A stretch of DNA of 64,000 nucleotides from Candidatus Omnitrophota bacterium (GTDB lineage Bacteria > Omnitrophota > Gorgyraeia > Duberdicusellales > 4484-171): the NCBI GenBank assembly GCA_024231025.1, contig JAAEQW010000090.1, positions 21,490 through 85,489 of the forward strand. Reading direction: 5' to 3'. Shown in pieces: positions 1,945 to 50,391 of this stretch. The position numbers and the translations under genes are program-made. How positions within the stretch are numbered: position 1 is the stretch's first letter; each line of letters starts with the position of its first letter. Under the pieces are notes generated by a model. It was not told the origin of the DNA and ran no database searches. It worked only from the letters and a program-made list of their open reading frames with translations.

Positions 1945-2267
1945 TATTCCTCCTTTTGTTAAATAGCCAAATTACAAGGTGTAAATTCCAATATTTAATT
2001 ACCAAACCGCTTGCTTATCGGATATTTTTGGGCAAGTAGTGTTGATAAATAAAGACAAGAAGTAAAAATAGTTTTCCAGGCAGGCCCTGAGACCTTAAAA
2101 GCATGGTATCCGAAACGAAGTGAAGGATTTTTAAGGTCGAAGCGCCAACGAAAGTCATCGCTGGATGACTTAAGTGGTGCCAAGAAAATTGGTTTCTACT
2201 TCTTATTTAGTCTAGCATACATTTCTCCTTGCAGCAACTCACAATCCTGTGATATAATTCGTTTATC

Positions 2268-7631: not shown

Positions 7632-7645
7632 TTCTACTCTTTAAG

Positions 7646-9247: not shown

Positions 9248-9534
9248 ACGTACACTACTTCTTTTAGAATCGCGTCTCTCAATTGGGGCTTTAAGGCTTT
9301 CTTTGTTACCAGGTCCACTTTAATTCCCAAAGCATCCTCTAGAAAATTCTTTAAATCGATAAACTCCCAACCTATTTTACCAGAGAATTCTACCAAAAGA
9401 TCAACATCGCTTTCTTCAGACGCTTCTCCATGGACAAAAGAACCAAAAATACCAATATTTTTTACTTTAAATTCCTTTTGTAACCGTGGAGTGATTTTTC
9501 TCAAAATTTGTGTTATCTCTTCTCTTGTTTTCAT
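9244..9534 (-). CDS. mntA: Minimal nucleotidyltransferase (MntA-like antitoxin)
   Basis: GIFGSFVHGEASEESDVDLLVEF is the classic GS..(x)n..DxD nucleotidyltransferase motif. Confidence 0.8.
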   Translation of the reverse strand: MKTREEITQILRKITPRLQKEFKVKNIGIFGSFVHGEASEESDVDLLVEFSGKIGWEFIDLKNFLEDALGIKVDLVTKKALKPQLRDAILKEVVYV

Positions 9535-9619: not shown

Positions 9620-12600
9620 TCACGCCGCAAGATCAAAGACAGGTTCTTCTTGTTCCTGATCAGCTTTTTTGAAATCACGCTCAATAGTAATGATTTGAAA
9701 TGTAAAGCCTTTGAAAGTTTTAATGTCAAAAGGAAGTGACTCAAAATTAGAAAATGGCGCAATGGAGCCACCTGTTTGCGACTCTTCATCTATCTCTAAC
9801 ATTTCTGGATTAAGATCAATACCGCCGGGATTGGTGTTTGGGAGTGTAGCGTCGACCTCTCCCCCGGCGGTTTGTTGTGCCGACGCTAAATAATCTAAAT
9901 GATTTTTCTTTTCATTATTTTGGTCAAACAAATTAGCCCCGACCAATGCTGGTCCTGCACTATTTTCTATAGAAGAATTTTGTTGAACGGTTAGAATTTG
10001 GTTACCATCAAACGCTTGTTTTAATTTATCCCAATAATTCTTTTCGCCTATAACCAATAGATTACCCTTTGTTTTTACTTCTGAGGATAAGCGCTTGGCA
10101 ATTTTGGAAAAATGATATCGATTCATCCAATAGCAGCTGACATATTCAGCGCAAGCAGTTACCACTTTGGTTCCAACAACTTCCCTGTTTTTAGCCTTCG
10201 TATGCATCGCTAAGATTTTCTCATCAGCAATTGTTCCATTGGATGATTGCGCGGCCCGAACCTCTCGATCCCACTCCATAAACAAATCGATCTCACCATA
10301 TTCTTTACACACCCTAAACAAATCATGCCTAATATCAACAAGTTGACGCCCCTCTGCTAAACTATCATCCAAAGATATAATTTTCTTGAAAAATCTAGAT
10401 GAGGTTGCGGCCAAATAAACCAGGGGTCCGTATAACGTTAAGAATGTATCCTCAATCTTGTTACGCTTAAATCCCAAATTCTCCATCTTAATCGTAAACG
10501 CATCGATCAAACCAACCAATTCGTTAATCCGCTCGAAACCACGGTCGCGCGTAAACCCTACCGCAGCAACATTACTAACGCCACCGCGGAGAAGCGCTTT
10601 TTTTATCGAACGCAATTGCTTTCTGTAAAGATGTGTTTGCCATTGGAAATTGAGATCAAGATCTAAAACAAGATCTTTAAAATACTGAGCATCACCATCA
10701 TCGTAAGCTTTGATTAAAAATTCTAGAAATTGACCGATATCCTGAGAAGCTTTCACAGGCTTAACAATAAAAACATCTTTCTTGTCTAGCGAATCTCGTT
10801 TTATCCCCAATTCATTTTTCCCAGATAATTCTCGAGCATATCTAGTCATGCCTAACAAATGGCACCCCCCAACAACAGTCATCGCAACACCATCCTTACC
10901 TACAATCCCGCTTGCTTCATGCAGCGTGTTTTCAATCATTGCCCGATCCCTATCTTTTGCCGATAACATAAAAAAGTTAAAAGAATCGCAATAATTACGA
11001 ATTACCCCCAATGGGATGCGTTCTTCTACACCAATCTCTTTCATAATTGCCAAAACTTCTTTCGAAGCAATTGAAGTCGATTGGCTCAAATCGTATAACC
11101 GATCAGACAAATCAATACTCTCTTTAGCGGTAAGAAATTCAACAATCTTCTTTCCATAATAAGCTGCAGCCTCTAAATAGACACTCGCTTCTTTACGCAG
11201 CAAATCATCATCGATAGCCACAAAATGCACCTGATCAATGAAATCCCTCATATGTACATGAAAATATCCTAGCACCCCGTAGGTAAGGAGAGTAAAATCA
11301 TCGGCAATCTCTTCAATATTATTTTCCAAGTAATTGACGATATCTTCTAAGTTTGAAACATTATTACCTTGCTTCTTTTTATCAGCAATGTAGATCCGGA
11401 CATTAGAAAAATGCGCCTGCATATTCGCGATAATATGCCGATGCCCATTGAGAGCTTCTTTCCGTACTCGTTCTACCCCCTGATGAGTTAATTCTAATCC
11501 CAACATAGCAAGTTTACCGCAAGCCGCTATCTCTCTAATCGTTTCTATATCTTTTTGTAACGAGTCCATCACCTTGCGTTCAGTTTGAAGTAAAGTGAAA
11601 AGATCCCAACAGTATCTCACGCTGGAAGCAGCATTGAGAACATTATTAGAAAGAGCCTTCTCAATCATGTCGTATTTTAAGGAATCGGCATGGCTATACC
11701 CTAATATCGCTAAGTCCCCTCCCGAAGCAATGCCTCCTCGAACATATCTAAGCACGCTATCATGATTTCGCACACTGCGATTACTGACACCGGAAGCTCT
11801 GGCAATAGCCTCTGACACCGGACCCACACCAAGGCTAACCGCTCCTACACCAGCCGCCTTAAAGAAACTCCTTCTGTTTATTTCCATCGGCTTTAGTATC
11901 TCAGCGCCTCTATCCTTATACTCAGCTTTAATCTCTGATAGATTGCGCTCAGTTACATCAACTTCAACATTGATCCCTATTTTCTCAAGCTTTTTCTCCA
12001 GGGCCTTGGCATTTTTACGGTCAAATGGATCAGCGTCAATCAAATATTCATATAGACCGTCTATCTTCTCTCCTTCAGGCAGGCGCTCATTAATCAACCT
12101 CTCAACATCCAATATTGTCATCATTAAACCGAGTGGCATATCCTCTTTCTTCAAAACTCCAGCAAAAGCTAAACCAAAAAAATTAGCCAACTCTTCTTCC
12201 TGCTCCTTCAATCCCTTAGAAAGCCTGCCAAAAAGACGCACTTCGTCGAACAAAGCATGGGCAGTTTCATGGCCATCAACAAAACGAATCGCTTCCTCCA
12301 GTGTTGGAACCCGACCAAATTTATCAGCAAGATCACTGAGCTGCTCTTCCAACTGCTTGCGATTCAAATGAACCCGCCGAATTAACCTACCATCCTCATG
12401 AAACCGAGCATGCAACCCGTGGATTATATTGGCGATGGTCAGTGGAGAAACTAGTGGTGGAAAATATTCAGTATCGGCGTCGGAAGTAACTGGCACAACT
12501 ACATCAGAGAGCCCTTCTTCATCGCTGGTAATTTGATGACTTCTTGAATTTGGATCAATATCGACCCTTGACGAAGGAATGCTAACAGCCTGGGACTTCG

Positions 12601-15600
12601 CACTCATAGCGGCTTTCTTTAATAATGTTTCCATATTAGAAAGCATCATCGATACTTCTTCGATGCTGTTGGCAGCAATAACATTATCTAAATCCGGCAA
12701 CTCCAGGCCTTCTGCTTTTAAATCGCTGGTTAACTCATTATTTAATTTTGCCATATATAATTGCTTACCGGCACCGCCATAATTCAAAACAATAACTTTT
12801 TTATTGTTTTTCAAAGCTACTACTGCTTCGTGAATGGTCCCTAAACTACCATTCAACACGATCATGACATCCGCCACCATTGCCATACCTACACGGCGCT
12901 GGTGCATATCCTTACCAATATATTGTACCGCTACTCGATTATTAGGAGATATCCTACTGTAACCAACAGCACTCATTCCTTGAGGTAATAAAGCAAAAAA
13001 CCGTTCATCACTATTCTGACTCAACGAACAAACCCCCTGATAAACATCTTTTCCTACCCCTGGAACACCACCGGTAAATACATAACCTTTATCTTTTACG
13101 TAATCAGCTAAGCATCTCCCTAATTCTTCTCCTATTGTAGGAGAGTAATCTGATGACGGGCTAACCGCGCCGATAACTCCAATCCTTATCCCTTCATACT
13201 CTTGCCGTATATATTCTGCTTGCCATTGTATTTCATCCCCTTCCTGATCGCTACGTCTTCGCGTTACGTCTTTTTGACCAGGAGGAATCTTTTCGTGAAA
13301 AAATATTTCTAGCAACCATCGAGTCGTATCTGGACTATCTACCCCTACCCCACTCGGCATAATCAACATTGGGTAATCATTCCCTTCAACACTATAACTA
13401 TTACCTATTTTAAGAATATCTTTCTGTTTTATTCCTGTTTGTTGAGCAAAGAAACTGGCGGCATTTCCTTTATTTACTTCCAAAGGCACTATATTCAGGT
13501 TAACTTCAGTATCAACTACTTTATATTTATGCATCAGACCTAAATCACCTAAAGCCATTTTTAAAGCAATAATCAACTCCTCCTTTTGCTCATTGGTAAC
13601 ATTATCTACAGCAATAATCGCTGAACGTTCAGTTACTTTAAAACCAAATTTCTCTAAATCCGTTGATTGTAATTTACCAACTATGCTTCTTCTATCCTGT
13701 GAATCAATAGCGTAACTGGTAAGGATCTCATCATTCCCTACGTCATAACACCCTGCCCCATTCTGCTCAAAAACATAAAGATTTTTTAATGCTTCTGAGT
13801 TTACTCTCCTGCGCATTCTTCTAACAAACACTTTATCTATCGACTTCGATCTGCCGCTTACAATACCCACCTTATACCCTGCCTCTAACATCCCGGCAAT
13901 TAAGTCTAAAATTTCACTGGATATTTTTTTCCCTCGAAGCTTCAAGGTGCCATCAATATCTAAGAGTACCCCACCGAACCTTTTATCTGCCCTAAAAGGC
14001 AAACTATCTAAATTATCTTTTTCAGCGACCGGCACTGCTCTTTGTTCATTCAAATCTACTAATCGCTCAACAATAGCAAATTGCCTTAGAAACTCATCTT
14101 CAAAAGTATGAGACGGATTTACTCCTTGACGGTTAACAACAAATCGTTTGCTGATATGATCATCGATGGAACCGCTAAGATGTTTATCCTGACCATTAAG
14201 CTGTCTCATGTAATCAGGCATATCCTGATTAGAAACATTGACAGCAGCAACAAACAGTCTCGATTGATTAATGGGATCTAATCCATCAATGCTGTCAGGA
14301 TTAAACGCCTCTGGCTTATCTCTCACTTGCCGATTTGACCATCGCCCACCCATAGTTACTGAAATATCGCTACGATTCATCGGATTATAATACTCACTTC
14401 TATAGGCATTGGCATCTCGATCTGGTATTGCTAATTCTTGCTTTAATCTTCTCAACTTATCTACAAATCTCATAATCATTTCATATGAAGAATAAACTTG
14501 ACCTTCATTACGTTGAGGATTGAAAAAATCCTGAAAATATTCCTGCTCTCTTAATTGATCCGCGCCTTCAATAAATTTGTCTCCTGCTAAAACATAATTA
14601 ATCAAAAGCATGACGTTAACAAAGGCTTTATGGGCATCAGGATAACGTGAACCACCTTGCACGTCACGCATAAAACTATTACTGCCGTCCATCATTACTA
14701 CTTCGGGTTGTTCTTTTAACATGAATCTTAAAGTATCATCATCGAAAAGCTGTTCTTTTCTTTTTGCACAAATAAGATGTTCATCATCATGGGCCTCAGT
14801 AGAACCAACCCTTACTTCAGCGATTTTTATCCCTAAGCTCTCTAAGCGAGTCTTTATTGGCGTCGCGAGAAACCAACCATAAGAAAAATTCGGCACGACT
14901 AAAACCTTTCGACCGGAATTTTTTAGAGCAACCACAAAGTCGAAGAACTTTTTCACCTCATAAGAAGTATAAGATAAGGCGGTTTTGGTTGAATCCTCCA
15001 CTTCATCTTGCGATAAACGGTTAAAATTCTCTAATATCTCCCTAAACCACTCAAAAGTATAAGTCTCTCGTTCTGACTCTCTCCCGCACTGACGAACATA
15101 CTCATTACAAAAACGACTATACTCTAAAGCTACTTTTAATTCATCATTAGGGTCAAAAGAATTATTAACTTGAGGATTATATACTCTCCAAATAGCCATC
15201 AAACTCTGGGGATCATTCGCCGCATCAATTCTTTGATTAAGAGTAGCCGAAGGATAAAATCCATTCTCTAAAAGCAATTTAGTATTTTCTACAAATTTCT
15301 GAGATATTTCATCTGACCGTAATGGCAATATAGAATCATAGGTAGAAGGATTATTTAATGCAGGTATAAATGTCTGTGATTGATGCAAAACCACAATAAA
15401 ATCACAAACGACCTCAAGATTTTCCTTGGTAACGAACTCGCTTTCAACTAATCTTTGCAGCATAGAGTACGCGGATTCTACTGTTTGTGCTGGTAAATGA
15501 TCCTTTACCTTTAGAGAAAATACAACTTCAACCATAATATCAAGGATGGCTTTTGCCTGGTTATTATCTGCAGCATGCAGCAATTTTTCTTTTAGAGACT

Positions 15601-18600
15601 CGAGATCGCTATATTCTAATCGAGGTTGGCTATGAATCAAACCAACACGCAATGCGTCGTAAAAAAATCTTCTACTATCATACTCAATACTATCGCCGGT
15701 TAAACCCAGAATAACCCTCGCTCTTTCCTTGGTGAACTCAACTTTACCGAAAAGACCCCTAAAAAATTCGAAATCACCAGATTTTTCATCCCAACAAGAG
15801 ATCAAAAGAGAAGCAAGTTGAATTTTTTCGAAACTACCATCTTCTGCCCAGCCAATAGCATCAATCAGCCCTCCAAATGAAAACGGCAAAAACGTAAGAA
15901 ATTCATTGCTTAAGATGCTAAACAAGCATTCTCGCGCTTGTGAATTTTGCACTTTACCAATTACTACCGCTAAATTATTAAATAAACTTGGATCTTTTCC
16001 GACTACATGCACTAAATCTTTCGCGATTCGTTTAGCTACCAAATTCTCACTTGAGATGCCTCCTTGAGAAACAATCCCGTCAATTGCTTTAACAATCAAA
16101 CCAGGATTACTAACTAATACCATGCCAATCCCAGCACCAACACGACCCTCTGTCCTTTCTACCACACTAAGTATAGTTTTGAAATCATCCTCATCGGGTC
16201 GCATCTGCTGATTACCAACGAGAGCGTGAGCAAAAACCGCGCTAAGCTCTCTTAAAGTTTCTTCATCTTCTGTGGTTGCTAATTTTGTAATAAAAATATC
16301 CTTGCTTGATTCAGTCAAAGAAACGTTCTCATTATTTTTGAGGAGGTTTTTTAAGACAGTGGCGGCTCTTTTTAAATCCTGCTCGTTATCAGCCCTGTCA
16401 ATTAAGACAAGTAGGTCTTCGGCATGATCTTGGCTGCTAAAACAGTGCCCGCAAACATAAGCGATCGCCGCTTTTGTTGAATCATTCTCTGTCTGGTTGA
16501 ATGATTGCGTCACTTTGTCGTTTAAACCAGAAAAATTAATAGCGTCTTCTTTAATTGCTCCGTAGCTGAAAGTCGCCGCCAAACGCCCATCAGTTTTTTC
16601 AAGCGCGGAAAGAATAGAGTCTACGTCTTCAGGGTCTAACCATTTATCTACTTTTGCTGCCCATGCTATATTAGGTAAAAGAGCCAGGATACTCTCTAAA
16701 TCTTCTTCATTTTCTTGATCACTAAACTCAGAGACAAGAGAGTTAAATTTGTTAAGAACGATTCTAAGACCTGCTTCGCTAATATTTAAATTATCCCTGT
16801 TTTTTTGCTTAATAATTGCCATCAAGATTGAAGATGCTTTAGCTAAAACCTGCTTGTTCTTCGAATCTCTTATTAAATTCAATAAAACTTCAAATTCTTG
16901 AGCATTAAACTTAGAAACAAATGGAAGAGCTATGTCGCGGCCAAGCGCATCATCGAGAACGGAAAGGATTGCTTCGCGCAAAGAATCATCACCAATACTA
17001 GCCAACGCACTGAGGATATCAGAAACTAAAGCTCTTGGCGCGCTACTGTCGCGAAATGCTGAACTAATAATACGCTCAAACCAATCAAAAGTAATCTTAC
17101 CCGATACGCTTAGGGTAATAAGATCAGAAATTAATTTAGAGACCGAATCATCTTTTTTGCCACGCCGTAAAACACTAATAAGAACAGATTCAACAGTACT
17201 TTTTAAATTTTCAAATTGAACATTATTAGTTGCTAAATCAACCATCTCCGCAAGCACATCAGGATTACACTCTAGGGCACCCTTAAACACCCAACCAAGA
17301 TGCTCTTTAGCCCTATCATCTACGGCTCTTTCGCGAGCCTGATATAATATCATTATTTGGTTACAATTAAGCTTAATTGCAGGATCGTCTCTATCTTGTT
17401 TTAAAGCTAGTGCGAGCGAACGCATAGTCGCATCATCATCTGAATTTTCTATCGCGGTCAAGATTCGAGTAGTAAAGCCCGGGTTGTATTTTACCGCCTC
17501 CCCTAAAACAAGCGCGTAGCAAACCTTGATTTCGTTCCTTTCAGGATCATGCGTTGATTGTTCCGATACTGAAAGAGCTAATTCAATTATGCGCGGATTA
17601 TTAGATAATAGCCGTTCTCCAATAGATTTATTCACCCCCCACATGTAATCATCTGAAACACCGACGAATATTCCAGCTAAAAGTGCCAGGTTTTCTGCGG
17701 TTTGTTCTAAATTATCACTAATAATCTCATCTTTAAAAACAAAAAAAGCAGAATTGAAAAAATCTTCAAGCCTCTGCTCATGGATAGATTCCCTTGTGCT
17801 ATTAGTATTCAGCACAACGCTCAACAGTTTATCGAGAATCTCATCTAAATTTTCTCTAGTTTGTTCTATACTATCTTCTACTATGATAATATCCTTTAAG
17901 GACGTAAGAAAATTGCTAAACAAGGGTTGAAGGTAACTTTCCGGCCCAGAAGCTTTTCGCTTAGGACTACTGGATCTTCGTATTTTATTGAGAAAAAATC
18001 TTAGCTCATTGCCGATCTCCTGTAAATTAGTAATCGTTTGTTTAGGGTCATCTTCTACAATAATCACATCTCTTAAGGAGGAAATACCGAGAAGTATGTA
18101 CTTTGCGTCATCGATCCCTGCTTTAGTACATAAATCTATTAATTCCTGTGGTAGCCCTTGTGAGTGTTTAATAATTTCCTGAAAACCAGAAGGAAGCTCG
18201 TCAAACGGTATGTCAGTAAAAGGATAGAGCTTTTGAAAGTATTCCGATTGCACTGAATTTCTCTGAGTCTGATTTTTTTTAATAAATGTAGTTAGGGCTT
18301 TATCGGGCCCGAGTAATTTTGGATACTCATCCGGCATAATTTGTTTGGCTGCTGCTCGCAGTAAATCATGGCCTGACGCTTTCGAAGAGAGCAATTTGTA
18401 ATTTTTAAAAGCACGCAAAAGAGCGTCACCCTCAATAGTCAATCGTGCCACCTCCGAATTTTGATTATTCTTTAAGACTAACTTCCCTTTAAGCCATCCG
18501 CGCTGAGTCAAAAACCTAAAAACTCTGTCTAAGCCAAAACCACACAATAGCTTGGCAATCGCCCCTTTCACTTCTATTTTTATTAATCCTCTCTTTAATA

Positions 18601-20428
18601 AATACTCGCCAATCTCATGCGTCAATGCCAAGCCTTTTAATTTTGGATCATTATAAATATCACGATAAAGAGCAATAAGATTCGGATTGTCCAAACCTTG
18701 TTCCCTGGCAAAACCAAATAAATCTTTAATTAACTTCAAAAAAGTAAAAAGTTTGGGTCTGTCTTTAGAAGGAAGTGTTTGAGCTAAATCCAATATCGCT
18801 AAAAAAAACTCAAGTCCAGTTTCCTGATCTCCAAGGTCCATTCGCTCAATACTCTCCCGAGCCAATAAAGCCGCATCAAGATCCTCCAAGTCAAGATCAA
18901 CCGCCCCCAACTTTTTCCCCTCACCATCAAACACCTCAACAACCCCCACGCTTCCTTCAACCTTAACCTCTCCTGCTACAGCCTGATTTCCGATTTGCGC
19001 AATATCGCCTGACTTATCCTTTGAAGAAACATCAGACGGCGATTCTTTGAGCTGACTACCAGAGACTAATGCCCCATCAATGCCATCAATTTTAATTTTT
19101 GCCATTGTTGGATGATCATCAGTTTCTTGTTTAATCAGTTGATCATGTTCTGAGCTTGTGCCAACTTCTAATTGGTCTGGAACCATTTTGACAATTTCTT
19201 CAAGACTCGCGCCCCCCGAATAATATCTGCGATTGAGTTTTTTATTTAAATGCGGATCAAAATCACGACGAATATAATTGTAAACACCTTTTTTGTAAGC
19301 TTCTAAATATTGGTTATAGATTTTCTCTTTTATCTCGGGGTCATCCCCTTCAACCCCGGCAATTTTGTTTTTGTCGAAATATATCTGGTCTAGGATGTTA
19401 GTCTTCGCTTCCGGGGACACGTACCGTTCTCGGCCTTCGGCCTGCGCTTCCCTGCCCGTCCGGCAGGCGGGCGGTACATGTCCCCGTGGGGTTTCGACAG
19501 TCTGGCGAAGCCGTTTCTTAAACCAGGTTGCCAAAATCAATGCATTATATATTTGACGTAATTGACTGAAAGACTGCCCATTGTTTACTTCTTCTTCGAT
19601 TGCCGGCAAGATCACTTCTTTTGCAATTTGGGTAGAAATATTATTAGAGGGCACGGCACGCCGTGCCCCTACGATGTTTTGTTTTTGGGCAACACCTGCC
19701 TGCCCGTCCGGAAGGCGGGCCTGCTGGTAGGCAAGGTAATCTTCTTCCAACATAATCTTAAGACGACTTTCTTTAACAAAGGCACGATTTCCTGCCTGAT
19801 GAACCACACATTTTTCAGGAACAATCCAAATCTTATTAAATGTATTAAGTGGTATTTTGGTTGTGCCATACAACTGATAGGCTCGACTATAAACCTTCTT
19901 CCAAAATTCCTTGCCTAATGGACTCTCCGGATAAGTTAAAGATGCGGTTAATTGCTTTAAAATATAATCTTCGCCTAAAAGATCGCGGCCCATATCAGTT
20001 AAGCCTAATTCGTAAGGAATTACGCTATCTTTTTCATAAGGCGAAAGATTAACCCAAAGGTCTTTTGCCGGAGTGGTTAACGAAGTAAGAAAATACTTTA
20101 TTAGTTGTTGGGTCTGAATCTTTAACTGCTCATCACTAAGGACCGCATCACCTTCATCAATAATAAAGCTAAATTTAAATGGGTCATTAGGCGAAAACTC
20201 TAAGCCCCGCAAGGTAATTGGCTCAAAATTGAGGGTAGTTTTGACAAGCTTAGTGGGAGCAGGCATATACTCCAATGCGGAAGTATAGCCCGGACGAACC
20301 AGATATGTGGAAAAAATAGATAGCAGAAAAACACATATAAAGAACCCGATTAGGGCTCGCAGTCGAATTCCCGCTCGTTTTTTATAGAATAGTAAAATCA
20401 TAAACCAAACACCATATAAATGTAACAT
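9620..20428 (-). CDS. Giant multi-domain protein (3602 aa). It has an N-terminal TM anchor plus a roughly 400-aa domain shared with the 38194-44445 protein. Downstream are long HEAT/ARM-like helical repeats, a HAD-IIB phosphatase-like domain (motif LLDIDGTL, about 13300-13990), a SLOG/LOG (TIGR00725-like) Rossmann domain (about 12770-13200), and a TraB/GumN/TIKI-like domain with GxxH...GxxH (about 10800-11750). A conserved C-terminal module is shared with the two other giants.
   Basis: One uninterrupted 10.8-kb ORF. The domain calls rest on motifs read from the translation: DIDGT; GGxPGxG...NGSLGTIHE; ILGYSH...VVGGCHLLG. The C-terminus is PGGIDLNPEMLEID...PFDIKTFKGFTFQIITIERD. Confidence 0.85.
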   Translation of the reverse strand: MLHLYGVWFMILLFYKKRAGIRLRALIGFFICVFLLSIFSTYLVRPGYTSALEYMPAPTKLVKTTLNFEPITLRGLEFSPNDPFKFSFIIDEGDAVLSDEQLKIQTQQLIKYFLTSLTTPAKDLWVNLSPYEKDSVIPYELGLTDMGRDLLGEDYILKQLTASLTYPESPLGKEFWKKVYSRAYQLYGTTKIPLNTFNKIWIVPEKCVVHQAGNRAFVKESRLKIMLEEDYLAYQQARLPDGQAGVAQKQNIVGARRAVPSNNISTQIAKEVILPAIEEEVNNGQSFSQLRQIYNALILATWFKKRLRQTVETPRGHVPPACRTGREAQAEGRERYVSPEAKTNILDQIYFDKNKIAGVEGDDPEIKEKIYNQYLEAYKKGVYNYIRRDFDPHLNKKLNRRYYSGGASLEEIVKMVPDQLEVGTSSEHDQLIKQETDDHPTMAKIKIDGIDGALVSGSQLKESPSDVSSKDKSGDIAQIGNQAVAGEVKVEGSVGVVEVFDGEGKKLGAVDLDLEDLDAALLARESIERMDLGDQETGLEFFLAILDLAQTLPSKDRPKLFTFLKLIKDLFGFAREQGLDNPNLIALYRDIYNDPKLKGLALTHEIGEYLLKRGLIKIEVKGAIAKLLCGFGLDRVFRFLTQRGWLKGKLVLKNNQNSEVARLTIEGDALLRAFKNYKLLSSKASGHDLLRAAAKQIMPDEYPKLLGPDKALTTFIKKNQTQRNSVQSEYFQKLYPFTDIPFDELPSGFQEIIKHSQGLPQELIDLCTKAGIDDAKYILLGISSLRDVIIVEDDPKQTITNLQEIGNELRFFLNKIRRSSSPKRKASGPESYLQPLFSNFLTSLKDIIIVEDSIEQTRENLDEILDKLLSVVLNTNSTRESIHEQRLEDFFNSAFFVFKDEIISDNLEQTAENLALLAGIFVGVSDDYMWGVNKSIGERLLSNNPRIIELALSVSEQSTHDPERNEIKVCYALVLGEAVKYNPGFTTRILTAIENSDDDATMRSLALALKQDRDDPAIKLNCNQIMILYQARERAVDDRAKEHLGWVFKGALECNPDVLAEMVDLATNNVQFENLKSTVESVLISVLRRGKKDDSVSKLISDLITLSVSGKITFDWFERIISSAFRDSSAPRALVSDILSALASIGDDSLREAILSVLDDALGRDIALPFVSKFNAQEFEVLLNLIRDSKNKQVLAKASSILMAIIKQKNRDNLNISEAGLRIVLNKFNSLVSEFSDQENEEDLESILALLPNIAWAAKVDKWLDPEDVDSILSALEKTDGRLAATFSYGAIKEDAINFSGLNDKVTQSFNQTENDSTKAAIAYVCGHCFSSQDHAEDLLVLIDRADNEQDLKRAATVLKNLLKNNENVSLTESSKDIFITKLATTEDEETLRELSAVFAHALVGNQQMRPDEDDFKTILSVVERTEGRVGAGIGMVLVSNPGLIVKAIDGIVSQGGISSENLVAKRIAKDLVHVVGKDPSLFNNLAVVIGKVQNSQARECLFSILSNEFLTFLPFSFGGLIDAIGWAEDGSFEKIQLASLLISCWDEKSGDFEFFRGLFGKVEFTKERARVILGLTGDSIEYDSRRFFYDALRVGLIHSQPRLEYSDLESLKEKLLHAADNNQAKAILDIMVEVVFSLKVKDHLPAQTVESAYSMLQRLVESEFVTKENLEVVCDFIVVLHQSQTFIPALNNPSTYDSILPLRSDEISQKFVENTKLLLENGFYPSATLNQRIDAANDPQSLMAIWRVYNPQVNNSFDPNDELKVALEYSRFCNEYVRQCGRESERETYTFEWFREILENFNRLSQDEVEDSTKTALSYTSYEVKKFFDFVVALKNSGRKVLVVPNFSYGWFLATPIKTRLESLGIKIAEVRVGSTEAHDDEHLICAKRKEQLFDDDTLRFMLKEQPEVVMMDGSNSFMRDVQGGSRYPDAHKAFVNVMLLINYVLAGDKFIEGADQLREQEYFQDFFNPQRNEGQVYSSYEMIMRFVDKLRRLKQELAIPDRDANAYRSEYYNPMNRSDISVTMGGRWSNRQVRDKPEAFNPDSIDGLDPINQSRLFVAAVNVSNQDMPDYMRQLNGQDKHLSGSIDDHISKRFVVNRQGVNPSHTFEDEFLRQFAIVERLVDLNEQRAVPVAEKDNLDSLPFRADKRFGGVLLDIDGTLKLRGKKISSEILDLIAGMLEAGYKVGIVSGRSKSIDKVFVRRMRRRVNSEALKNLYVFEQNGAGCYDVGNDEILTSYAIDSQDRRSIVGKLQSTDLEKFGFKVTERSAIIAVDNVTNEQKEELIIALKMALGDLGLMHKYKVVDTEVNLNIVPLEVNKGNAASFFAQQTGIKQKDILKIGNSYSVEGNDYPMLIMPSGVGVDSPDTTRWLLEIFFHEKIPPGQKDVTRRRSDQEGDEIQWQAEYIRQEYEGIRIGVIGAVSPSSDYSPTIGEELGRCLADYVKDKGYVFTGGVPGVGKDVYQGVCSLSQNSDERFFALLPQGMSAVGYSRISPNNRVAVQYIGKDMHQRRVGMAMVADVMIVLNGSLGTIHEAVVALKNNKKVIVLNYGGAGKQLYMAKLNNELTSDLKAEGLELPDLDNVIAANSIEEVSMMLSNMETLLKKAAMSAKSQAVSIPSSRVDIDPNSRSHQITSDEEGLSDVVVPVTSDADTEYFPPLVSPLTIANIIHGLHARFHEDGRLIRRVHLNRKQLEEQLSDLADKFGRVPTLEEAIRFVDGHETAHALFDEVRLFGRLSKGLKEQEEELANFFGLAFAGVLKKEDMPLGLMMTILDVERLINERLPEGEKIDGLYEYLIDADPFDRKNAKALEKKLEKIGINVEVDVTERNLSEIKAEYKDRGAEILKPMEINRRSFFKAAGVGAVSLGVGPVSEAIARASGVSNRSVRNHDSVLRYVRGGIASGGDLAILGYSHADSLKYDMIEKALSNNVLNAASSVRYCWDLFTLLQTERKVMDSLQKDIETIREIAACGKLAMLGLELTHQGVERVRKEALNGHRHIIANMQAHFSNVRIYIADKKKQGNNVSNLEDIVNYLENNIEEIADDFTLLTYGVLGYFHVHMRDFIDQVHFVAIDDDLLRKEASVYLEAAAYYGKKIVEFLTAKESIDLSDRLYDLSQSTSIASKEVLAIMKEIGVEERIPLGVIRNYCDSFNFFMLSAKDRDRAMIENTLHEASGIVGKDGVAMTVVGGCHLLGMTRYARELSGKNELGIKRDSLDKKDVFIVKPVKASQDIGQFLEFLIKAYDDGDAQYFKDLVLDLDLNFQWQTHLYRKQLRSIKKALLRGGVSNVAAVGFTRDRGFERINELVGLIDAFTIKMENLGFKRNKIEDTFLTLYGPLVYLAATSSRFFKKIISLDDSLAEGRQLVDIRHDLFRVCKEYGEIDLFMEWDREVRAAQSSNGTIADEKILAMHTKAKNREVVGTKVVTACAEYVSCYWMNRYHFSKIAKRLSSEVKTKGNLLVIGEKNYWDKLKQAFDGNQILTVQQNSSIENSAGPALVGANLFDQNNEKKNHLDYLASAQQTAGGEVDATLPNTNPGGIDLNPEMLEIDEESQTGGSIAPFSNFESLPFDIKTFKGFTFQIITIERDFKKADQEQEEPVFDLAA
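19411..19489. repeat. GC-rich palindromic element inserted in-frame in giant gene 1. Its inverted arms CCGGGGACACGTACCG / CGGTACATGTCCCCG flank a nested GCCCGTCCGGCAGGCGGGC hairpin. It is translated as ...PRGHVPPACRTGREAQAEGRERYVSPE...
   Basis: The arms are exact reverse complements except for one mismatch. GC content is far above the surrounding gene. The paralogous giant 2 has no insert at this position. Confidence 0.6.
19649..19722. repeat. Second in-frame GC-rich palindromic insert in giant gene 1. It contains the GGGCACGGCACGCCGTGCCC hairpin plus a CTGCCCGTCCGGAAGGCGGGC hairpin and is translated as ARLPDGQAGVAQKQNIVGARRAVP.
   Basis: Both hairpin types also occur intergenically, at 8564-8583 and at 781-800 / 24757-24777. 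The paralog (giant 2) carries a different palindromic element at the equivalent position. Confidence 0.55.
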
Positions 20429-38193: not shown

Positions 38194-41100
38194 TTACCGC
38201 TCAACCGGCAAAAGCATCTGGGTGAGTTCGCTTGAGGAGATGTCTTCGATTGAGGTAACGGTGAAGATTAATCCTTCATAGCTAAACGTAGGGGCGCCGC
38301 TTGTCTGCGCCCGCTTCACAAAAACCCCCTCCCCTTCGGTTTGGAGGTTGAAGTTTTTGCGTAGCATGTCGATGCCACCGACACCACCATTATTCTCAGG
38401 AAAAGTAACTTCATAGACATACCCCGAAAAACGTAAACTTCTCCTGCAATCTACATAATGTTGCCTTTCTATTTTAACACCTTCATATTCCGGTTGGCTT
38501 AACAATTCTTTTATCAAACTATCGACCTTTTTAAATTCCGTGCTTAAGCCATAGGTTCCAGCTACAATTTTTCCTCCTGGCTTCACTACCCTTAAAGCCT
38601 CCTCTAGTACCTCCTTAGGGTGGGATACCGGAAACAGATCAGAGAGAACACCAGTTGAGGTCATCACAACATCTTGACTATGATCGGCTAACTCTTTCGA
38701 CTTAGACCTTTCTCCCGCTGAAAATTCACCTAAAATGTGCTTAATCTCTCCTTTCAATTCCTTTCTAAAAAAAGGCTTCTTTAAAAAGATATCAGCAGCA
38801 TCTTTACTCATTAAATGCGCTCGAGGGTCTAAACTGTACGCAATATAATCAATCTCTAAAGTTGATGTAACTACCCCTAAACAACCTAAAGGATAGGTAC
38901 CATCTATCCCAACATCAACAACTGAATCACCACTTTTTAATCCGAGCCCATTTAAAAAACTAACTACCTCCTTCCAATCATCTCCCCCCTTTATGCGCTT
39001 AAATCTTCGGATTGCAAAATCATCTTTGGTTCGTTTTTTAATAATCACACCCTTAGGTTCCTCCTGCCTGGATGAACCGCCCCGGGAATGGATTGCTGCT
39101 GGTGGCTTAAGTGGTCTCTTGCCTTTCTTGGGCTTGCCGTTACCCACACCTGGCGCTTGGAGAAAATCACCCCGCCAAGGTTTGCCTGAAATTCGTCGAC
39201 CAGCATCAGCCGGAGCAGGCAAACCTTCATTTTCAAGTTTCAAGAACTGATCCTTTATCTCCTCGCTCATAACCTTAAGGTATTCAGGCTGATTGAATAT
39301 CCAGTGACTAGCGCCTTCAATTACTATCTTTACGGTCTCTATCTCTTCGCCCTTGCTGTTATGAAATTTCCTATCCTCTATCTGATAGGGAAATCGAAGT
39401 TCACCAGAAATGCTAATAATTCTTCTTAAATGTGGATTGTCTATAATCTTTTTTGCCTTATTCAACATCACCCCTTCTATTGCAACGATAGTTGAAACTG
39501 GATATTTTTCTTGCTCAATCGCCTGAATCCATAAATCAAAACCAGCGCTATAGGCAACAGGAATAAATGGTTTTTCAGATAGTTGTTTAGGTATTTTTTC
39601 AGTTATTTCTCTCACCAGCTGCTTGCGCTTAAAAAGGTATCTATGAATATCTAAGACTCGCCTAATTTCTTTAAATATCGCGTTTTTCGGCCATTTCTCG
39701 CTTCGTTCAAACAGCGAAACACTATACACCTCTTTTGCTTGATTTGCTAATAGCTTGAAAAAACCTTCCATATATTCTGGCAATCCACTCCCCCAATTTT
39801 CCACCCCATTCGAAACCACAAAAGGCGAAGAACTATTGGTTAAAGAAAAACCAGAACCGTCCGTTTTATTGATTTCATAAATATATCCATTAAAATCTAA
39901 CCCTTCTCTATAATTAACATAATTTGGTTCTCCCACCCTAATACCTTCGTATTCCGGTTGGCTTAGTATCCTTTTTATCAATCTCTCAACTCTTTCGAGT
40001 TCAGGTTTCATGCCATAAGTTCCTGCTACAATTTTCCCTCCTGACTTCACTACCCTTAAAGCTTCCCTTAGCGCCTCTTCGGGATTGGAATCCGGTGCCG
40101 GATCAGAAAAAACACCAGTTAGGGTTATCACAACATCTTGACTATGATCGGCTAACTCTTTTGACTTAGACCTTTCTCCCGCTGAAAATTCACCTAAAAC
40201 ATATTTAATTTTTCCTTTCAATTCTTTTCTAACCAAAGGATTCTCTAAGAACATTTCGGCAATATTTTCACTTTTTTCATGCGGTCCACGCTGCAATCCA
40301 TACCCCACATAATTAATTCCTAAGCTTGACACGACTAACCCTAAATAACCCGAGAAATGAACCCCCTCAACCCCAACATTAGTAATTGAATCACCGTTTT
40401 TTACTCCTAACTTATTTAATAATCCAACCGCTTCTTGCCATGCCCTTTCGCTTTTTATATTATTAAATATTCCCAAATCCTCAAGATCCTCTGCAGTCGG
40501 TTTATCCGCAATCGCACCATCAATCTCTTTAATCGGCATAATTATAGTAAATGTTGTGCCGTGGTTTTGGGAATCTTCTTCAATATGGCGGCTTTTGACA
40601 TTGATTGTTGCGCCTAAATCATCGATAAGCTCTTTAACTATTGATAAGCCAATTCCGGTACCAAGATTACCTTTGGTAGTTTTGCCTTCTTGAAAGATCC
40701 AGCCATCTTTTAGTTTATCTTCAAAGATACCAATACCATTATCGGTGATTGAAATGATTACGTTATTATCGGTTTGTTTTACACTTGCGCTAACTTCCCC
40801 CTGATAAGGCTCATCCTTGATTTGCTCACACTCCCTAGTCGCATACGCAGCATTATCAAATAAGTTGCTCCAAATAAAATCAAGCTGGATTGCGTTAGCC
40901 TCCATCTGGACACTGTCATTACGCGACATTTGCCAATCAACCTTTTTGTAAATATTGCGATACCTCTCTAACGCACTATACAGAGATTCCCCGACACCTA
41001 CTATTTTCATTTCGGCAGAGTCGTCAATGGCATCTTTTAGATCTTCTAGAGCATCCAAAGCACCTTGCCCTCTTCGTCTGACCTCCAGTATGGTATCGAT

Positions 41101-44100
41101 CATTTCATCCAACTTTCTATCCAACTTCTTATCATCACTACCAGCTAAGTCACCTTTAATCAATTGAAGAAAATTAATTACTTCTTCTTTCGAATCTATT
41201 ATTTCCTCTAATTGCGTAATTAAATCTACGACTATTGCGTAAACTAAAGATGGGAAATCTAACCTCACAGTTAAGTTGAATATGGCAAAGGTAGAGGCAT
41301 CGACGATGTTTCTGAGATTTGTTTTTAATCTTTCACTTTTTCTCGATAATTTTTCCCCTAATTCAATCCTTTTATCATCTTTATTTTCGCTTTCCCTTAA
41401 CTTTTCCAATACCGAATCAATAAGTCCAAAATCAAAAACACTAGGCATTATTCCATGTGAGTACGATTTTAGACCGATTTTATCAATTAACGCCTTAATC
41501 GTTGTCGGTGGATTAGGATAACCTTTTGATTTTAACTCAAGCCTGCTTAAGATAATCAAATAATCTATGCTATCCTCTGAAGATGTTGTTACAGCTTCTT
41601 CCTGATCGTACATATATTTAAAATAAATTAAGTACTTTTTAAGATAATCTTTCTCCTGCTCATCTAACTTTCGCTCACTTGAAATCTCACGTAATTTTTC
41701 CAGATTAATAATGCGTTCTTTTATAAGATAATAACTTTTTACTCTTTCAAATTGCTCCTTTACATAAACCATATCATCATCGATAGGATGTTTGGGGTAG
41801 AGTTCTTCCATGTAAGTAATTAAATCCTGCAAGCCGCTTTTCTCTTTGTCAGCTTCCCAATCATCCTGATAACCATCGGGAATATTTTCAAAAACATACC
41901 CCATAATCTTTGCTAAACTATAAATGTCCCAAGAAGGATAACGAGGGTAAAACCTTAATCCACTCGGAATAAAACTATCCATCCCTGAGCGCCTAGGCAT
42001 TGCACCAATCGGCGCAACGAATTGAGGATCAATCATTCCAACTCGCCTTTCTTGATTAACGATTATATTGCGCGGATTAACATCACCAACAACAAGCTTT
42101 TGTTTGTGAACGTTTTCGCAAAAGCTGAGAACTTTGGCAAAAACATCAATTTGTTCAACAACAGAAAAACTACCAAAAATCTCTCCCACCTCAAACCAGC
42201 TATCAACAACTTGATAACCTTCTATTTTAATTACCTTTTTTCCAATTTGTTGACCACCAGAGATATTCTCCTCAGTCATCTGAAGATTACCATCTTCATC
42301 AACACCCGCTCCTTCTTTTTTTAACTGTGAAAACCCCGGCATATCGAGTTGATTAAATTTGACCAGAGTTCTTAACTCGCGCATATTCATTTTATTTTCT
42401 AATGCCAGGATGCTTTCGCCTTCTTTCCTATATCCACCACCAGAAACTTTACAAAAAATTGCATCATCATCAGAAAGAGAATAAATAGTAGAATACCCTC
42501 CAACACCTAACACAGACCTACCTAACGTATTGACAATTGCATTGGTAAAGTACGGGCTAAGTAGCGGATCGTTTTTTATTGCATCTAGATAATATTGCCG
42601 AACTTGTGCAGCGCTTGTGTGAACCGGCAATGGTTCATGCTCTGAGAAAGTATACTTTATCGCAGCAGTTTCTTCTTTAGTAAGTTGTGGCGTTTTTAAA
42701 GAAGGGAAATTATCCAAAATGGTCCAAAGCCCTCTCGCACTTATGCTTTTAAAATAATCCGGTAAGTAATACCTGCTATCGTCTTCGCAAACCATTCCTA
42801 CATCTGATAAGATTTGTAGTGAATTATTTACCCCTTTATCATGTCCGATCGCTACCATTTCACGCTCAAACCCTTCAAGCGTTTTAGCCTTATCTTTAAA
42901 GATTTTATTCCTCATCATATACCCTAAAAGAACATCCGGAGTCACTTCCAAAATGGAATCAGAAACCGACCCACCACGGGGATGGTTTGCTGCTGGTGGC
43001 TTAAGTGGTCTTTTGCCTTTTTTGGGCTTGCCGTTGCGCGCACCTGGCGCTTGGGGAGAATCCCCTCGCCGAGGTTTACCTGAAACTCGAGGGCGAGATT
43101 CAAGAGAAATAGAACCGTTCCTATTTTCATCAACTGTTCGGCCAGAAGCAATAATTCTTTTGGCTTTGGTGGCAGAAAACATGCCAGAAGCAACGGCATC
43201 GCTAATATTTTGTGCGACTTTCAAGTTGTTCGGTAAAGAAATAAAATTGCACCCTCCGGAGAAATATTTTCGGTTGATGCGTTTGTGAGTTGTTGGGTCG
43301 CGTTCGGGTTTTATGTAATTGTAGACGCCTTTTTTGTAGGCTTCGACGTAAAGATTATAGATTTTATCTTTGGCGCCTTTGCCTTCTAGGTCAATGCCTT
43401 TTATTTTGCCTTGATCGATGTAATGTTGATAGAAGGTATCTTTGAACTTCTCTTTGAACCATACCGCAAGGATTAGGGAATGATAGATTTGACGCAAGCG
43501 TGCGAAATTCTTCCCGTGATTTACGTCGTGGGATATTTTAGGAAGGATTGTTTCGCGCATCAGGCGAGATGTTATTTCATTTACTTCCGGGGACACGTAC
43601 CGATCCCCGACTACGTCGGGACTTCCGGTACATGTCCCCGTCCGATCCGGTACATGTCCCCGTGCAACATAATCGTCCTCAAGCATTACCTTCATCGTGG
43701 CTTCGGTGATATAGGCGACATCTTTATTTTCATAGACTACGCTTTTATCGGGCGTGATCCAAACCTTGTTAAAGGCGTTGATGGATAAATCAGAGACGCA
43801 AAGTTTTGCGTCTCTACAGTCTTCATAAACCTTTTCCCAATAATCTTTTCCGGTTTCACTCTCTGGATAAGTTAAAGAAGACAAAAGCTGCTTCAGAATA
43901 TAATCCTGACCCAACAGATCCTTTCCTAGATCGGTTAGGCTCAAATCATCTGGAGCAACTCTTGTCTTTTCGTAGGGAGACAAGTTAACCCACAATTCCT
44001 CTTCAGGAAGGGTCAAACCTGCCAAAAAATACCGGATAAGACGGCTTGCTTCCTCTTGGTTAATATCTTCCTGATTAGCGGTGTCAACGATAAATTCAAT

Positions 44101-44445
44101 ATTTAGAGGATTCTCAGGGTCAAAGCGCAACCCTTTCAATACAGAGTAAGAATAATCCTGGGATAACGGAAGTAACTTAGTTGGAGATGGTAAATTATAC
44201 GCATGAGCGTGACTTATCGCGCCCTTGCCCTTAAGGCGCAGCAATCCCGGCAACCTGCCCCGATCGAATAGTCGGGGAATCGCTGCCGCCAATATTGCTA
44301 CCGCCACAAAAACAGCAATTACCCGAAAAGGTACAGACCCCTTCCTTAATGTAATTTTTCGAATCACAATTTGTCTCCCTACAAATAAAAAAGCATGGAT
44401 CTCGCCTCCCCAGGCATAAATCCATGCTTCCCTAATATATACCAT
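38194..44445 (-). CDS. Giant multi-domain protein (2083 aa). It has the N-terminal TM anchor and roughly 400-aa domain shared with giant 1. A basic Pro/Gly/Lys-rich linker is followed by a eukaryotic-like protein kinase domain (VVGDVNPRNIIV, about 41800-42900), a HATPase_c (GHKL) domain (about 40520-40950), a class I SAM-methyltransferase-like domain, an alpha/beta-hydrolase-like domain, a second copy of the linker and methyltransferase-like domain, and the shared C-terminal module.
   Basis: Continuous 6.25-kb ORF. The motifs read are: glycine loop GVGGYSTIY; catalytic D-x-N-P-x-N; N-box LFDNA; G1 DNGIGI; G2 GTGIGLS; methyltransferase motif I VVDVGIDGT and motif III VVKPGGKIV. Confidence 0.85.
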   Translation of the reverse strand: MVYIREAWIYAWGGEIHAFLFVGRQIVIRKITLRKGSVPFRVIAVFVAVAILAAAIPRLFDRGRLPGLLRLKGKGAISHAHAYNLPSPTKLLPLSQDYSYSVLKGLRFDPENPLNIEFIVDTANQEDINQEEASRLIRYFLAGLTLPEEELWVNLSPYEKTRVAPDDLSLTDLGKDLLGQDYILKQLLSSLTYPESETGKDYWEKVYEDCRDAKLCVSDLSINAFNKVWITPDKSVVYENKDVAYITEATMKVMLEDDYVARGHVPDRTGTCTGSPDVVGDRYVSPEVNEITSRLMRETILPKISHDVNHGKNFARLRQIYHSLILAVWFKEKFKDTFYQHYIDQGKIKGIDLEGKGAKDKIYNLYVEAYKKGVYNYIKPERDPTTHKRINRKYFSGGCNFISLPNNLKVAQNISDAVASGMFSATKAKRIIASGRTVDENRNGSISLESRPRVSGKPRRGDSPQAPGARNGKPKKGKRPLKPPAANHPRGGSVSDSILEVTPDVLLGYMMRNKIFKDKAKTLEGFEREMVAIGHDKGVNNSLQILSDVGMVCEDDSRYYLPDYFKSISARGLWTILDNFPSLKTPQLTKEETAAIKYTFSEHEPLPVHTSAAQVRQYYLDAIKNDPLLSPYFTNAIVNTLGRSVLGVGGYSTIYSLSDDDAIFCKVSGGGYRKEGESILALENKMNMRELRTLVKFNQLDMPGFSQLKKEGAGVDEDGNLQMTEENISGGQQIGKKVIKIEGYQVVDSWFEVGEIFGSFSVVEQIDVFAKVLSFCENVHKQKLVVGDVNPRNIIVNQERRVGMIDPQFVAPIGAMPRRSGMDSFIPSGLRFYPRYPSWDIYSLAKIMGYVFENIPDGYQDDWEADKEKSGLQDLITYMEELYPKHPIDDDMVYVKEQFERVKSYYLIKERIINLEKLREISSERKLDEQEKDYLKKYLIYFKYMYDQEEAVTTSSEDSIDYLIILSRLELKSKGYPNPPTTIKALIDKIGLKSYSHGIMPSVFDFGLIDSVLEKLRESENKDDKRIELGEKLSRKSERLKTNLRNIVDASTFAIFNLTVRLDFPSLVYAIVVDLITQLEEIIDSKEEVINFLQLIKGDLAGSDDKKLDRKLDEMIDTILEVRRRGQGALDALEDLKDAIDDSAEMKIVGVGESLYSALERYRNIYKKVDWQMSRNDSVQMEANAIQLDFIWSNLFDNAAYATRECEQIKDEPYQGEVSASVKQTDNNVIISITDNGIGIFEDKLKDGWIFQEGKTTKGNLGTGIGLSIVKELIDDLGATINVKSRHIEEDSQNHGTTFTIIMPIKEIDGAIADKPTAEDLEDLGIFNNIKSERAWQEAVGLLNKLGVKNGDSITNVGVEGVHFSGYLGLVVSSLGINYVGYGLQRGPHEKSENIAEMFLENPLVRKELKGKIKYVLGEFSAGERSKSKELADHSQDVVITLTGVFSDPAPDSNPEEALREALRVVKSGGKIVAGTYGMKPELERVERLIKRILSQPEYEGIRVGEPNYVNYREGLDFNGYIYEINKTDGSGFSLTNSSSPFVVSNGVENWGSGLPEYMEGFFKLLANQAKEVYSVSLFERSEKWPKNAIFKEIRRVLDIHRYLFKRKQLVREITEKIPKQLSEKPFIPVAYSAGFDLWIQAIEQEKYPVSTIVAIEGVMLNKAKKIIDNPHLRRIISISGELRFPYQIEDRKFHNSKGEEIETVKIVIEGASHWIFNQPEYLKVMSEEIKDQFLKLENEGLPAPADAGRRISGKPWRGDFLQAPGVGNGKPKKGKRPLKPPAAIHSRGGSSRQEEPKGVIIKKRTKDDFAIRRFKRIKGGDDWKEVVSFLNGLGLKSGDSVVDVGIDGTYPLGCLGVVTSTLEIDYIAYSLDPRAHLMSKDAADIFLKKPFFRKELKGEIKHILGEFSAGERSKSKELADHSQDVVMTSTGVLSDLFPVSHPKEVLEEALRVVKPGGKIVAGTYGLSTEFKKVDSLIKELLSQPEYEGVKIERQHYVDCRRSLRFSGYVYEVTFPENNGGVGGIDMLRKNFNLQTEGEGVFVKRAQTSGAPTFSYEGLIFTVTSIEDISSSELTQMLLPVER
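43587..43663. repeat. GC-rich palindromic element inserted in-frame in giant gene 2, translated as RGHVPDRTGTCTGSPDVVGDRYVSPE. Its left arm CCGGGGACACGTACCG is identical to the giant-1 element at 19411. Its right arm CCGGTACATGTCCCCG is tandemly duplicated.
   Basis: Direct reading. The identical 16-mer contrasts with the otherwise diverged paralogous flanks. Confidence 0.6.
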
Positions 44446-48902: not shown

Positions 48903-48903
48903 A

Positions 48904-50390: not shown

Positions 50391-50391
50391 A

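Follow-up and report, generated by a model that had tools for sequence, protein, structure and literature searches.

A C-terminal module and an N-terminal domain frame variable, putatively secreted proteins of Omnitrophota

A stretch of 64,000 nucleotides from a Candidatus Omnitrophota bacterium (contig JAAEQW010000090.1, positions 21,490 to 85,489; hereafter the 64-kb window, which sets the scope of our data for this genome) encodes three giant open reading frames (ORFs), giant 1 (g1), giant 2 (g2) and giant 3 (g3). They end in a related block, which we call the C-module. We found that this module is one end of a constant frame. Proteins of the family consist, in this order, of a Sec-type signal peptide, a conserved N-terminal domain (N-domain), a hypervariable centre and the C-module, and the C-module almost always occurs together with the N-domain. 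It is reasonably probable that the C-module is the C-terminal half of this frame and acts with the N-domain in the fate of variable secreted cargo after passage through Sec.

Omnitrophota are abundant, uncultured and ultra-small bacteria, which are thought to live on other cells or to prey upon them. One frame common to thousands of exported proteins would provide a sequence rule by which the candidate surface and effector repertoire of the phylum can be listed. Moreover, the N-domain and the C-module are two handles for seeking the machinery that reads them. The centres of these proteins are fast-evolving and often rich in enzymes. Both ends of the frame are absent from Pfam, NCBIfam and the Protein Data Bank (PDB), and the proteins are at present either hypothetical or misnamed after a single cargo domain.

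Results and Discussion

The C-module is a large and strictly C-terminal family

The canonical C-module spans about 60 amino acids (aa) with the consensus GGIDLTPANMNLQTQNxGxEIKFHLDPAMLQQLQNAPGFVPVIINIQPMxxLxxFLGL, and many relatives of the N-domain end in a near-identical way, e.g. …GGIDLSPANMNLQTQNGGKAIKFHLDPAQFQQLQNAPGFVPVIINIQPMTNLRMFLGL…. Using a search profile (hidden Markov model, HMM) of 11 modules, three from the window and eight external ones, against 1.84 billion cluster representatives, we retrieved 5,875 of them with E<=1e-3, among which 2,183 had E<=1e-10. Among 150 listed representatives, all 146 new ones carry the C-module with its end 0-38 aa from the end of the protein. A genome scan with canonical modules as query and one genome per species, which samples canonical-type loci only, returned 76 loci with 86 C-module ORFs, and in each of the 86 the module ends 0-24 aa before the stop codon. 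The strictly C-terminal position that had been proposed in an earlier note on this DNA is thus borne out. Behind the module there is a short polar tail with neither a transmembrane helix nor a basic stretch. Omnitrophota genomes hold many copies, often in tandem, and in one metagenome-assembled genome (MAG) 11 modules were found in six loci.

Within a genome, the C-modules of paralogues are 64-73% identical in amino acids, and third codon positions at conserved residues are 56-60% identical. Since the amino acids are kept while the synonymous sites diverge, the conservation of the C-module is selected at the protein level. Gene conversion as the origin of the likeness is ruled out by this divergence.

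Neither the C-module nor the N-domain has a match in Pfam or NCBIfam, in the window giants and in canonical members alike, and sequence searches of the PDB with the profiles of both were empty. This agrees with the earlier note, which could not assign the block to any of the sorting or secretion families that it named. A full-text literature search for the motif strings gave nothing relevant, and in the source databases the family proteins are named 'hypothetical protein' or after one cargo domain.

The giants of the window carry divergent C-modules

The C-terminal sequences of the three giants, as quoted in the earlier note, were reproduced exactly by translating the 3' ends. Their shared block, GGID…G(F/L)xFxIxxIE, starts 61-68 residues before the stops. 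The six-frame translation of the window contains only six occurrences of GG[IVL]D, of which three belong to the three largest ORFs and lie 68, 61 and 61 residues ahead of their stops. That all three C-termini align is true in the first place of g1 and g3, whose tails share 41.8% identity over 79 aa (BLASTP, E 1.1e-11). The relationship of g2 is weaker and is recovered by profile methods only: its tail has no BLASTP match to that of g1 or g3, and its second half was misplaced by MAFFT on untrimmed tails and was placed properly once the tails were trimmed.

Because the search profile contained window sequences, the window modules were retested with hhalign against an external-only profile of 18 modules, from which the window sequences were excluded. 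The profile of the three window sequences matched it with a probability of 92.9% and an E value of 3.6e-7, and the similarity therefore survives a proper profile alignment. Single window modules gave 1.1e-5 for g1, 7.2e-5 for g3 and, for the first half only, P 2e-5 for g2. We count the g2 module as a member on the grounds that its GGID…NLQT.G.G half matches the external-only profile, that its position is identical and that g2 also has the family N-domain. In an alignment of the three window tails with eight external modules, the GGI, the G of GF and one I are invariant or nearly so, and the window variant reads GF-TFQIITIE, compared with the canonical GF-VPVIINIQP. By sequence, the window C-modules are genuine but divergent members of the family. 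The metagenome scan revealed no close relative of the g1/g3 variant, the only match being a chance LPFDIKTF within an unrelated protein of 226 aa, and a word-indexed search with the 89-aa tail of g1 gave no candidates, as this query was too short and too divergent.

The blocks might be thought to have no function as protein, being alike by chance or composition, or being a recombination handle in the DNA that is kept alike by gene conversion. It would be in line with this that BLASTP missed the g2 tail and that an earlier HMM of eight external modules recognized the window tails weakly (E 0.06, 0.23 and 7). However, the E value of 1e-11 between g1 and g3, the profile-profile value of 3.6e-7, the thousands of homologues with the module C-terminal in all examined, and the synonymous sites that are largely randomized between paralogue modules while amino acids are kept make this explanation extremely improbable.

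The C-module is paired with an N-domain behind a hydrophobic leader

According to the earlier note, the N-terminal and internal domains of the giants are otherwise unrelated. This is contradicted by g1 and g2, in which residues 55-409 and 85-401, respectively, share 41% identity (BLASTP, E 3.6e-81). The N-domain has a length of about 350 aa, adopts a novel alpha/beta fold and ends in …YFSGG. Among the indexed candidates we obtained 1,071 matches at E<=1e-5, and where these are named, almost all are hypothetical proteins of Omnitrophota, with one from Candidatus Auribacterota. The N-domain of g1 is 57% identical to that of an external relative (P0121). Regarding the two hallmarks of this Omnitrophota family, the C-module is found in all three giants, and the N-domain after a leader in g1 and g2.

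Of the 86 C-module ORFs in the 76 loci, 62 also contain the N-domain, and only nine that are complete at the 5' end are without it. Two of the nine are split genes (L027 and L052), in which a separate N-domain ORF overlaps or immediately precedes that of the C-module, five are short (99-358 aa), and two, in L002 (748 aa) and L029 (532 aa), are unexplained. Split family genes, in which the N-domain ORF and the C-module ORF lie in different frames, were seen at L027, L052 and L032 (Table 1); sequencing errors, pseudogenes or frameshifting are possible, and L032, which stems from a long-read assembly, shows several breaks. We also found a complete member of 438 aa without cargo, which consists of leader, N-domain, a 15-aa linker and C-module and which shares a 32-kb contig with a member of 1110 aa, the two being in tandem.

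A hydrophobic leader is located just upstream of the N-domain in 54 of 54 complete N-domain ORFs. It typically ends in …AQAQ, followed by DFRLPAP, a classical signal-peptidase I context, from which we infer that the carriers are exported by Sec. Apart from rare exceptions, the members have no internal hydrophobic segments.

The suggestion that the block behaves as a C-terminal sorting or secretion signal can be upheld in part. Strict C-terminality, thousands of carriers, the lack of a database match and the Sec-type signal peptides make a targeting or recognition role outside the cytoplasm plausible for the C-module. An autonomous tag, which alone directs unrelated cargo to a dedicated outer-membrane translocon or a sortase-like enzyme, would moreover agree with the many cargo proteins per genome, with their diverse domains, and with the very high protein-level conservation across paralogues. 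However, the C-module is almost never found without the N-domain in complete genes, so that its carriers are not otherwise unrelated, and this obligate pairing, together with the cargo-less member, argues against a free-standing tag of the kind known from the C-terminal domain (CTD) of the type IX secretion system (T9SS) or from PEP-CTERM. Defining features of these two signals and of type I secretion system (T1SS) signals are also missing, curated sorting domains gave no HMM match, the short polar tails have no transmembrane helix or basic end, and the 76 loci have no transporter or peptidase gene as a consistent neighbour. An autonomous tag is, in our opinion, rather improbable.

The centre is hypervariable and bracketed by a short motif

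The centre differs from member to member and ranges in length from 15 to >3,000 aa. Using Pfam on the centres of 36 other members, we identified HAD, GGDEF, ABC1 kinase, PLD, SNF2, methyltransferase, M48, HTH, receiver and phosphoribosyltransferase domains, none of which occurred in more than two of the 36, and many centres had no match. Syntenic orthologues adjacent to ligA have N-domains that are 55-89% identical and centres that are 10-30% identical, with LigA at 75-78%.

In canonical members (P0121-P0386 and loci L001-L076) the motif D-x-A-M is enriched about 24-fold, with 320 copies observed versus 13 expected. In 46 of 59 ORFs the N-domain is followed by the first copy at a distance of 1-65 aa, and in 32 of the 59 the last copy precedes GGID by 1-26 aa; the canonical C-module itself contains DPAM. 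The motif looks like a putative processing or recognition site. In the window giants, a search for enriched short motifs returned the HEAT-repeat consensus of g3 only.

Such an architecture brings to mind the multifunctional-autoprocessing repeats-in-toxin (MARTX) proteins. In a delivery frame of this kind, the ends would deliver the protein into a host or prey cell, and the central cytoplasm-type enzymes would be freed by cleavage at short linker motifs. Centres that need ATP, GTP, S-adenosylmethionine (SAM) or DNA despite the Sec leader, their hypervariability even between syntenic orthologues, and the enriched D-x-A-M bracketing the centre in canonical members are in accordance with this, as is the host-dependent or predatory lifestyle inferred for Omnitrophota (PMC10066038; bioRxiv 10.1101/2023.11.21.568195). 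However, Pfam revealed no processing protease domain common to the 36 members, repeats-in-toxin (RTX) or pore-forming repeats are missing, and D-x-A-M is not enriched in the window giants (1, 0 and 1 copies). We consider a MARTX-like frame to be quite unlikely. Somewhat broader, and a tentative possibility, is that the frame marks the substrates of an undescribed, Omnitrophota-specific post-Sec pathway for export, surface assembly or delivery to host or prey, the centres being effector payloads which in canonical lineages are released at the bracketing D-x-A-M. Cytoplasm-type cargo behind a Sec leader would fit action inside another cell, consistent with a host-dependent lifestyle.

How the two ends may act together

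We favour the reading that the C-module acts together with the N-domain on cargo that has passed through Sec, in its onward export, retention or assembly. Docking of the two ends in cis or head to tail and a MARTX-like delivery frame would be more specific variants of this reading. Sec would export the protein, and the N-domain and the C-module would then form the joint constant part for its handling, with the centre as variable payload. The C-module would be a short recognition element, which probably folds on binding and may be read by a conserved partner, i.e. a component of post-Sec export, retention or assembly. Alternatively, its reader could be the N-domain of the same or of a neighbouring family member. 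In its behaviour the C-module resembles a recognition element, as it is strictly terminal, is under constraint along its entire length and, on its own, is not folded with confidence. Our data show the architecture, the strict C-terminality, the conservation at the protein level, the pairing with the N-domain, the taxonomic restriction and the multiple copies; export by Sec, a partner and its identity, and a role in secretion or anchoring are what we infer beyond this.

AlphaFold predicted the N-domain of the 438-aa minimal member confidently, as a block with a predicted local distance difference test (pLDDT) score of about 90, and the C-module as a mixture of helix and strand with low confidence. 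Two models of this member were made; the second had a shallower alignment and was worse overall, and few alignment rows held both ends.

These models bear on the idea of self-association, in which the C-module binds the N-domain, either in cis, giving a loop into which the cargo is inserted, or in trans, giving head-to-tail filaments or a surface coat that displays the centres, and in which membrane translocation would not be among the functions of the C-module. In favour of this, the pairing of the two ends in a single gene is obligate, the minimal member consists of these two ends alone, conservation across paralogues is higher for the C-module than for the N-domain, as if any tail must fit any head, and the isolated C-module is not confidently folded. 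On the other hand, AlphaFold gave no confident cis complex, although with few alignment rows holding both parts, and the C-modules of g1 and g2 differ strongly while their N-domains are similar. We regard self-association as unlikely.

Several observations weigh against a joint post-Sec role of the two ends. In both AlphaFold models the C-module has a pLDDT of only 28-66 and is not docked confidently onto the N-domain. Conservation is much lower among the window C-modules than among canonical ones, those of g1 and g2 being about 25% identical compared with 41% for their N-domains, and the constraint on the module may be relaxed or altered in the lineage of the window. With a Kyte-Doolittle value of 2.5, the leaders of g1 and g2 exceed in hydrophobicity those of a few canonical members calculated over the same window length (1.7-2.3), and look more like uncleaved anchors. 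Export by Sec has been read from sequence only. Cargo such as GGDEF, REC, HTH, SNF2, kinases and SAM methyltransferases depends on cofactors of the cytoplasm and sits oddly at the periplasm or the surface, unless it acts inside another cell. Finally, clustering of the neighbours at the 76 loci gave no conserved gene that would suggest a partner.

Comparison with known systems

The T9SS CTD resembles the C-module in that a Sec signal is combined with a conserved, strictly C-terminal domain on dozens of diverse proteins per genome. It has been described as an immunoglobulin-like beta-sandwich of about 80 aa (PMC11285876), whereas the C-module has about 60 aa and is predicted to mix helix and strand. 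Moreover, T9SS cargo has no common N-terminal domain, while the C-module is paired with one. T9SS CTD models (Por_Secre_tail, TIGR04183 type) did not match at E<=0.01 in Pfam and NCBIfam searches of window giants and canonical members, and PorK/L/M/N, SprA and PorU/V were found neither in the window nor among the recurrent neighbours of the 76 loci.

MARTX proteins are likewise very large, with conserved ends around a variable array of cytoplasm-type effector domains. Their ends are glycine-rich RTX-type repeats, they are exported by a T1SS without a Sec leader, and their effectors are freed by the protease CPD. None of these features was found in the family described here. T1SS and RTX substrates in general have no Sec leader and bear GGxGxDxUx nonapeptide repeats ahead of an uncleaved C-terminal signal; in our proteins HemolysinCabind or other RTX matches are missing, N-terminal leaders are present, and GGID occurs singly and not as a repeat.

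In two-partner secretion (TPS) proteins such as CdiA, a Sec leader is also followed by a conserved N-terminal domain and a polymorphic remainder, with several copies per genome. However, the TPS domain is a beta-helix that is read by an adjacent TpsB, unlike the novel alpha/beta N-domain, and no adjacent gene of the Omp85 type was found beside the family genes of the 76 loci. The variable part of CdiA is its C-terminus, which is the most conserved part here.

Dockerins are modules of similar size (about 60-70 aa) with which many different secreted enzymes of the cellulosome end and by which these are docked to a scaffold. The window giants and 36 family members showed neither a match to dockerin PF00404 nor duplicated calcium-binding loops, and no cohesin-like partner has been identified here. 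The PEP-CTERM/exosortase and LPXTG/sortase systems share with the C-module that many secreted proteins of a lineage bear a C-terminal signature. Signals of the PEP-CTERM, LPXTG and GlyGly-CTERM type consist of a short motif, a transmembrane helix and a basic cluster, whereas g1, g2 and g3 have no hydrophobic C-terminal segment and no match to an NCBIfam sorting signal. Autotransporters (type V secretion system) end in a beta-barrel translocator of about 250-300 aa, compared with the conserved C-terminal unit of about 60 aa here, and the giants and other members gave no autotransporter match in Pfam.

The giant proteins published previously for Omnitrophota (Archaeovorin and Dockerin types) come from the same phylum and are large multi-enzyme proteins with leaders, followed by PilZ and receiver genes downstream, as at g1 (bioRxiv 10.1101/2023.11.21.568195). 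They differ in having >10-40 thousand aa, many transmembrane helices, C39/SecA-like domains and adjacent type II secretion system or pilus loci. The frame of N-domain and C-module is mentioned neither in the papers on Omnitrophota giant proteins nor in the 2026 catalogue of long proteins.

Taxonomic distribution

The family is specific to Omnitrophota. As to the window itself, its EF-G is 100% identical to an Omnitrophica protein at NCBI, encoded on a contig of 89,766 bp, and the following 119 matches listed share 76-82% identity; those that are named belong almost all to Omnitrophota, with one each from Candidatus Susulua and Candidatus Aureabacteria. By title, 52 of the 76 loci are from Omnitrophota, 22 from 'uncultured Planctomycetales', one from Alphaproteobacteria and one from a 'bacterium'. 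In two of the 22 'Planctomycetales' loci (L041 and L072) the LigA encoded beside the family gene was checked; it is 73-78% identical to that of loci labelled Omnitrophota, a similarity that exceeds the one between some of the Omnitrophota loci, and the label of these two assemblies is therefore a naming artefact. The titles of the 'Planctomycetales' MAGs include CAZABZ and CAZASA assemblies.

Genes and features of the window and of related loci

The features of the giants and further loci are listed in Table 1. After the C-module, g1 continues for 14 residues (ADQEQEEPVFDLAA), g2 for four (PVER) and g3 for three (TPT).

Table 1. Features of the window (positions in the 64-kb stretch, protein domains by residue) and of related loci (positions in the respective locus)
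Feature	Position	Strand	Description
g1	9620..20428	-	complete ORF, 3602 aa: signal/anchor, N-domain, variable centre, C-module
g1 N-terminal hydrophobic segment LIGFFICVFLLSIFSTYLV	20297..20353	-	signal peptide or signal anchor; sole hydrophobic segment of g1
g1 family N-domain	19208..20269	-	residues 54-407; ends …RRYYSGG; family HMM E 1e-143
g1 centre domains	HAD-IIB residues 2155-2360; SLOG/LOG residues 2414-2561	-	Pfam
g1 C-module TLPNTNPGGIDLNPEMLEIDEE…PFDIKTFKGFTFQIITIERDFKK	9665..9847	-	followed by 14-aa tail and stop codon (9620-9664)
g2	38194..44445	-	complete ORF, 2083 aa: anchor, N-domain, centre, C-module
g2 N-terminal hydrophobic segment VPFRVIAVFVAVAILAAAI	44278..44334	-	
g2 family N-domain	43249..44199	-	ends …RKYFSGG; family HMM E 9e-128
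g2 centre domains	HATPase_c residues 1185-1306; SAM methyltransferase ~1908-1972	-	Pfam
g2 C-module ENNGGVGGIDMLRKNFNLQTEGEG…FSYEGLIFTVTSIEDISSSELTQMLL	38209..38397	-	most divergent of the three window modules
g3	55789..63999	-	at least 2736 aa; frame open at window end (63999), N-terminus beyond the window
g3 domains		-	transglutaminase core; ~600 aa of HEAT repeats (Pfam)
g3 C-module TTTPGGIDISAGMLNIDEV…PFDIKTFQGFTFQIIRIER	55801..55986	-	followed by TPT and stop codon
EF-G gene	2998-5094	-	window neighbour
PilZ and receiver genes	7230-8005	-	after g1
Nucleotidyltransferase + HEPN/HepT pair	8888-9534	-	directly downstream of g1
173-aa ORF	33404-33925	-	Tox-PAAR-like, sub-threshold
Nucleotidyltransferase + HEPN/HepT pair	37406-38115	-	directly downstream of g2
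Bat/MoxR-type operon	44538-52259	-	complete; between g2 and g3
Receiver and hybrid genes	52425-55006	-	after g3
Family gene upstream of ligA, L015	10279-15927		conserved position; centres of the three almost unalignable
Family gene upstream of ligA, L029	11007-16508		conserved position
Family gene upstream of ligA, L041	2127-6599		conserved position
Split family gene, L027	2781-10180		N-domain ORF and C-module ORF in different frames
Split family gene, L052	6312-10234		as above
Split family gene, L032	7948-10210		as above

Neighbours of the giants include genes for EF-G, an aldehyde dehydrogenase, FeoB, citrate synthase and DprA as well as a Bat/MoxR operon, and no secretion or sortase-like genes were found within the window. 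At the 76 loci, a tyrosine recombinase and a TPR membrane protein are the most recurrent neighbours (10 loci each), followed by receiver proteins (8 loci). A tyrosine recombinase or integrase lies within 10 kb of family genes in L004, L015, L020, L021, L028, L031, L043, L044, L072 and L075, and these recombinases could be related to the turnover of the variable centres.

Directly downstream of both g1 and g2 is a toxin-antitoxin pair of a nucleotidyltransferase and a HEPN/HepT protein, a repetition which may be a coincidence or a recurrent linkage. PilZ and receiver genes come after g1, and g3 is followed by two receiver genes and a hybrid of histidine kinase, GGDEF and receiver. PilZ genes have been reported to follow the giant genes of Omnitrophota (bioRxiv 10.1101/2023.11.21.568195), and the genes after g1 and g3 echo this linkage. 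The Bat/MoxR-type operon contains genes for a MoxR AAA protein, a DUF58 protein, an unknown ORF of 164 aa, two VWA/BatA-like proteins, a TPR protein, BatD and a TPR-SH3 protein. The 173-aa ORF, which adjoins two receiver genes, matches a Tox-PAAR-like domain below the threshold (E 1e-5, 26 bits versus a cut-off of 31).

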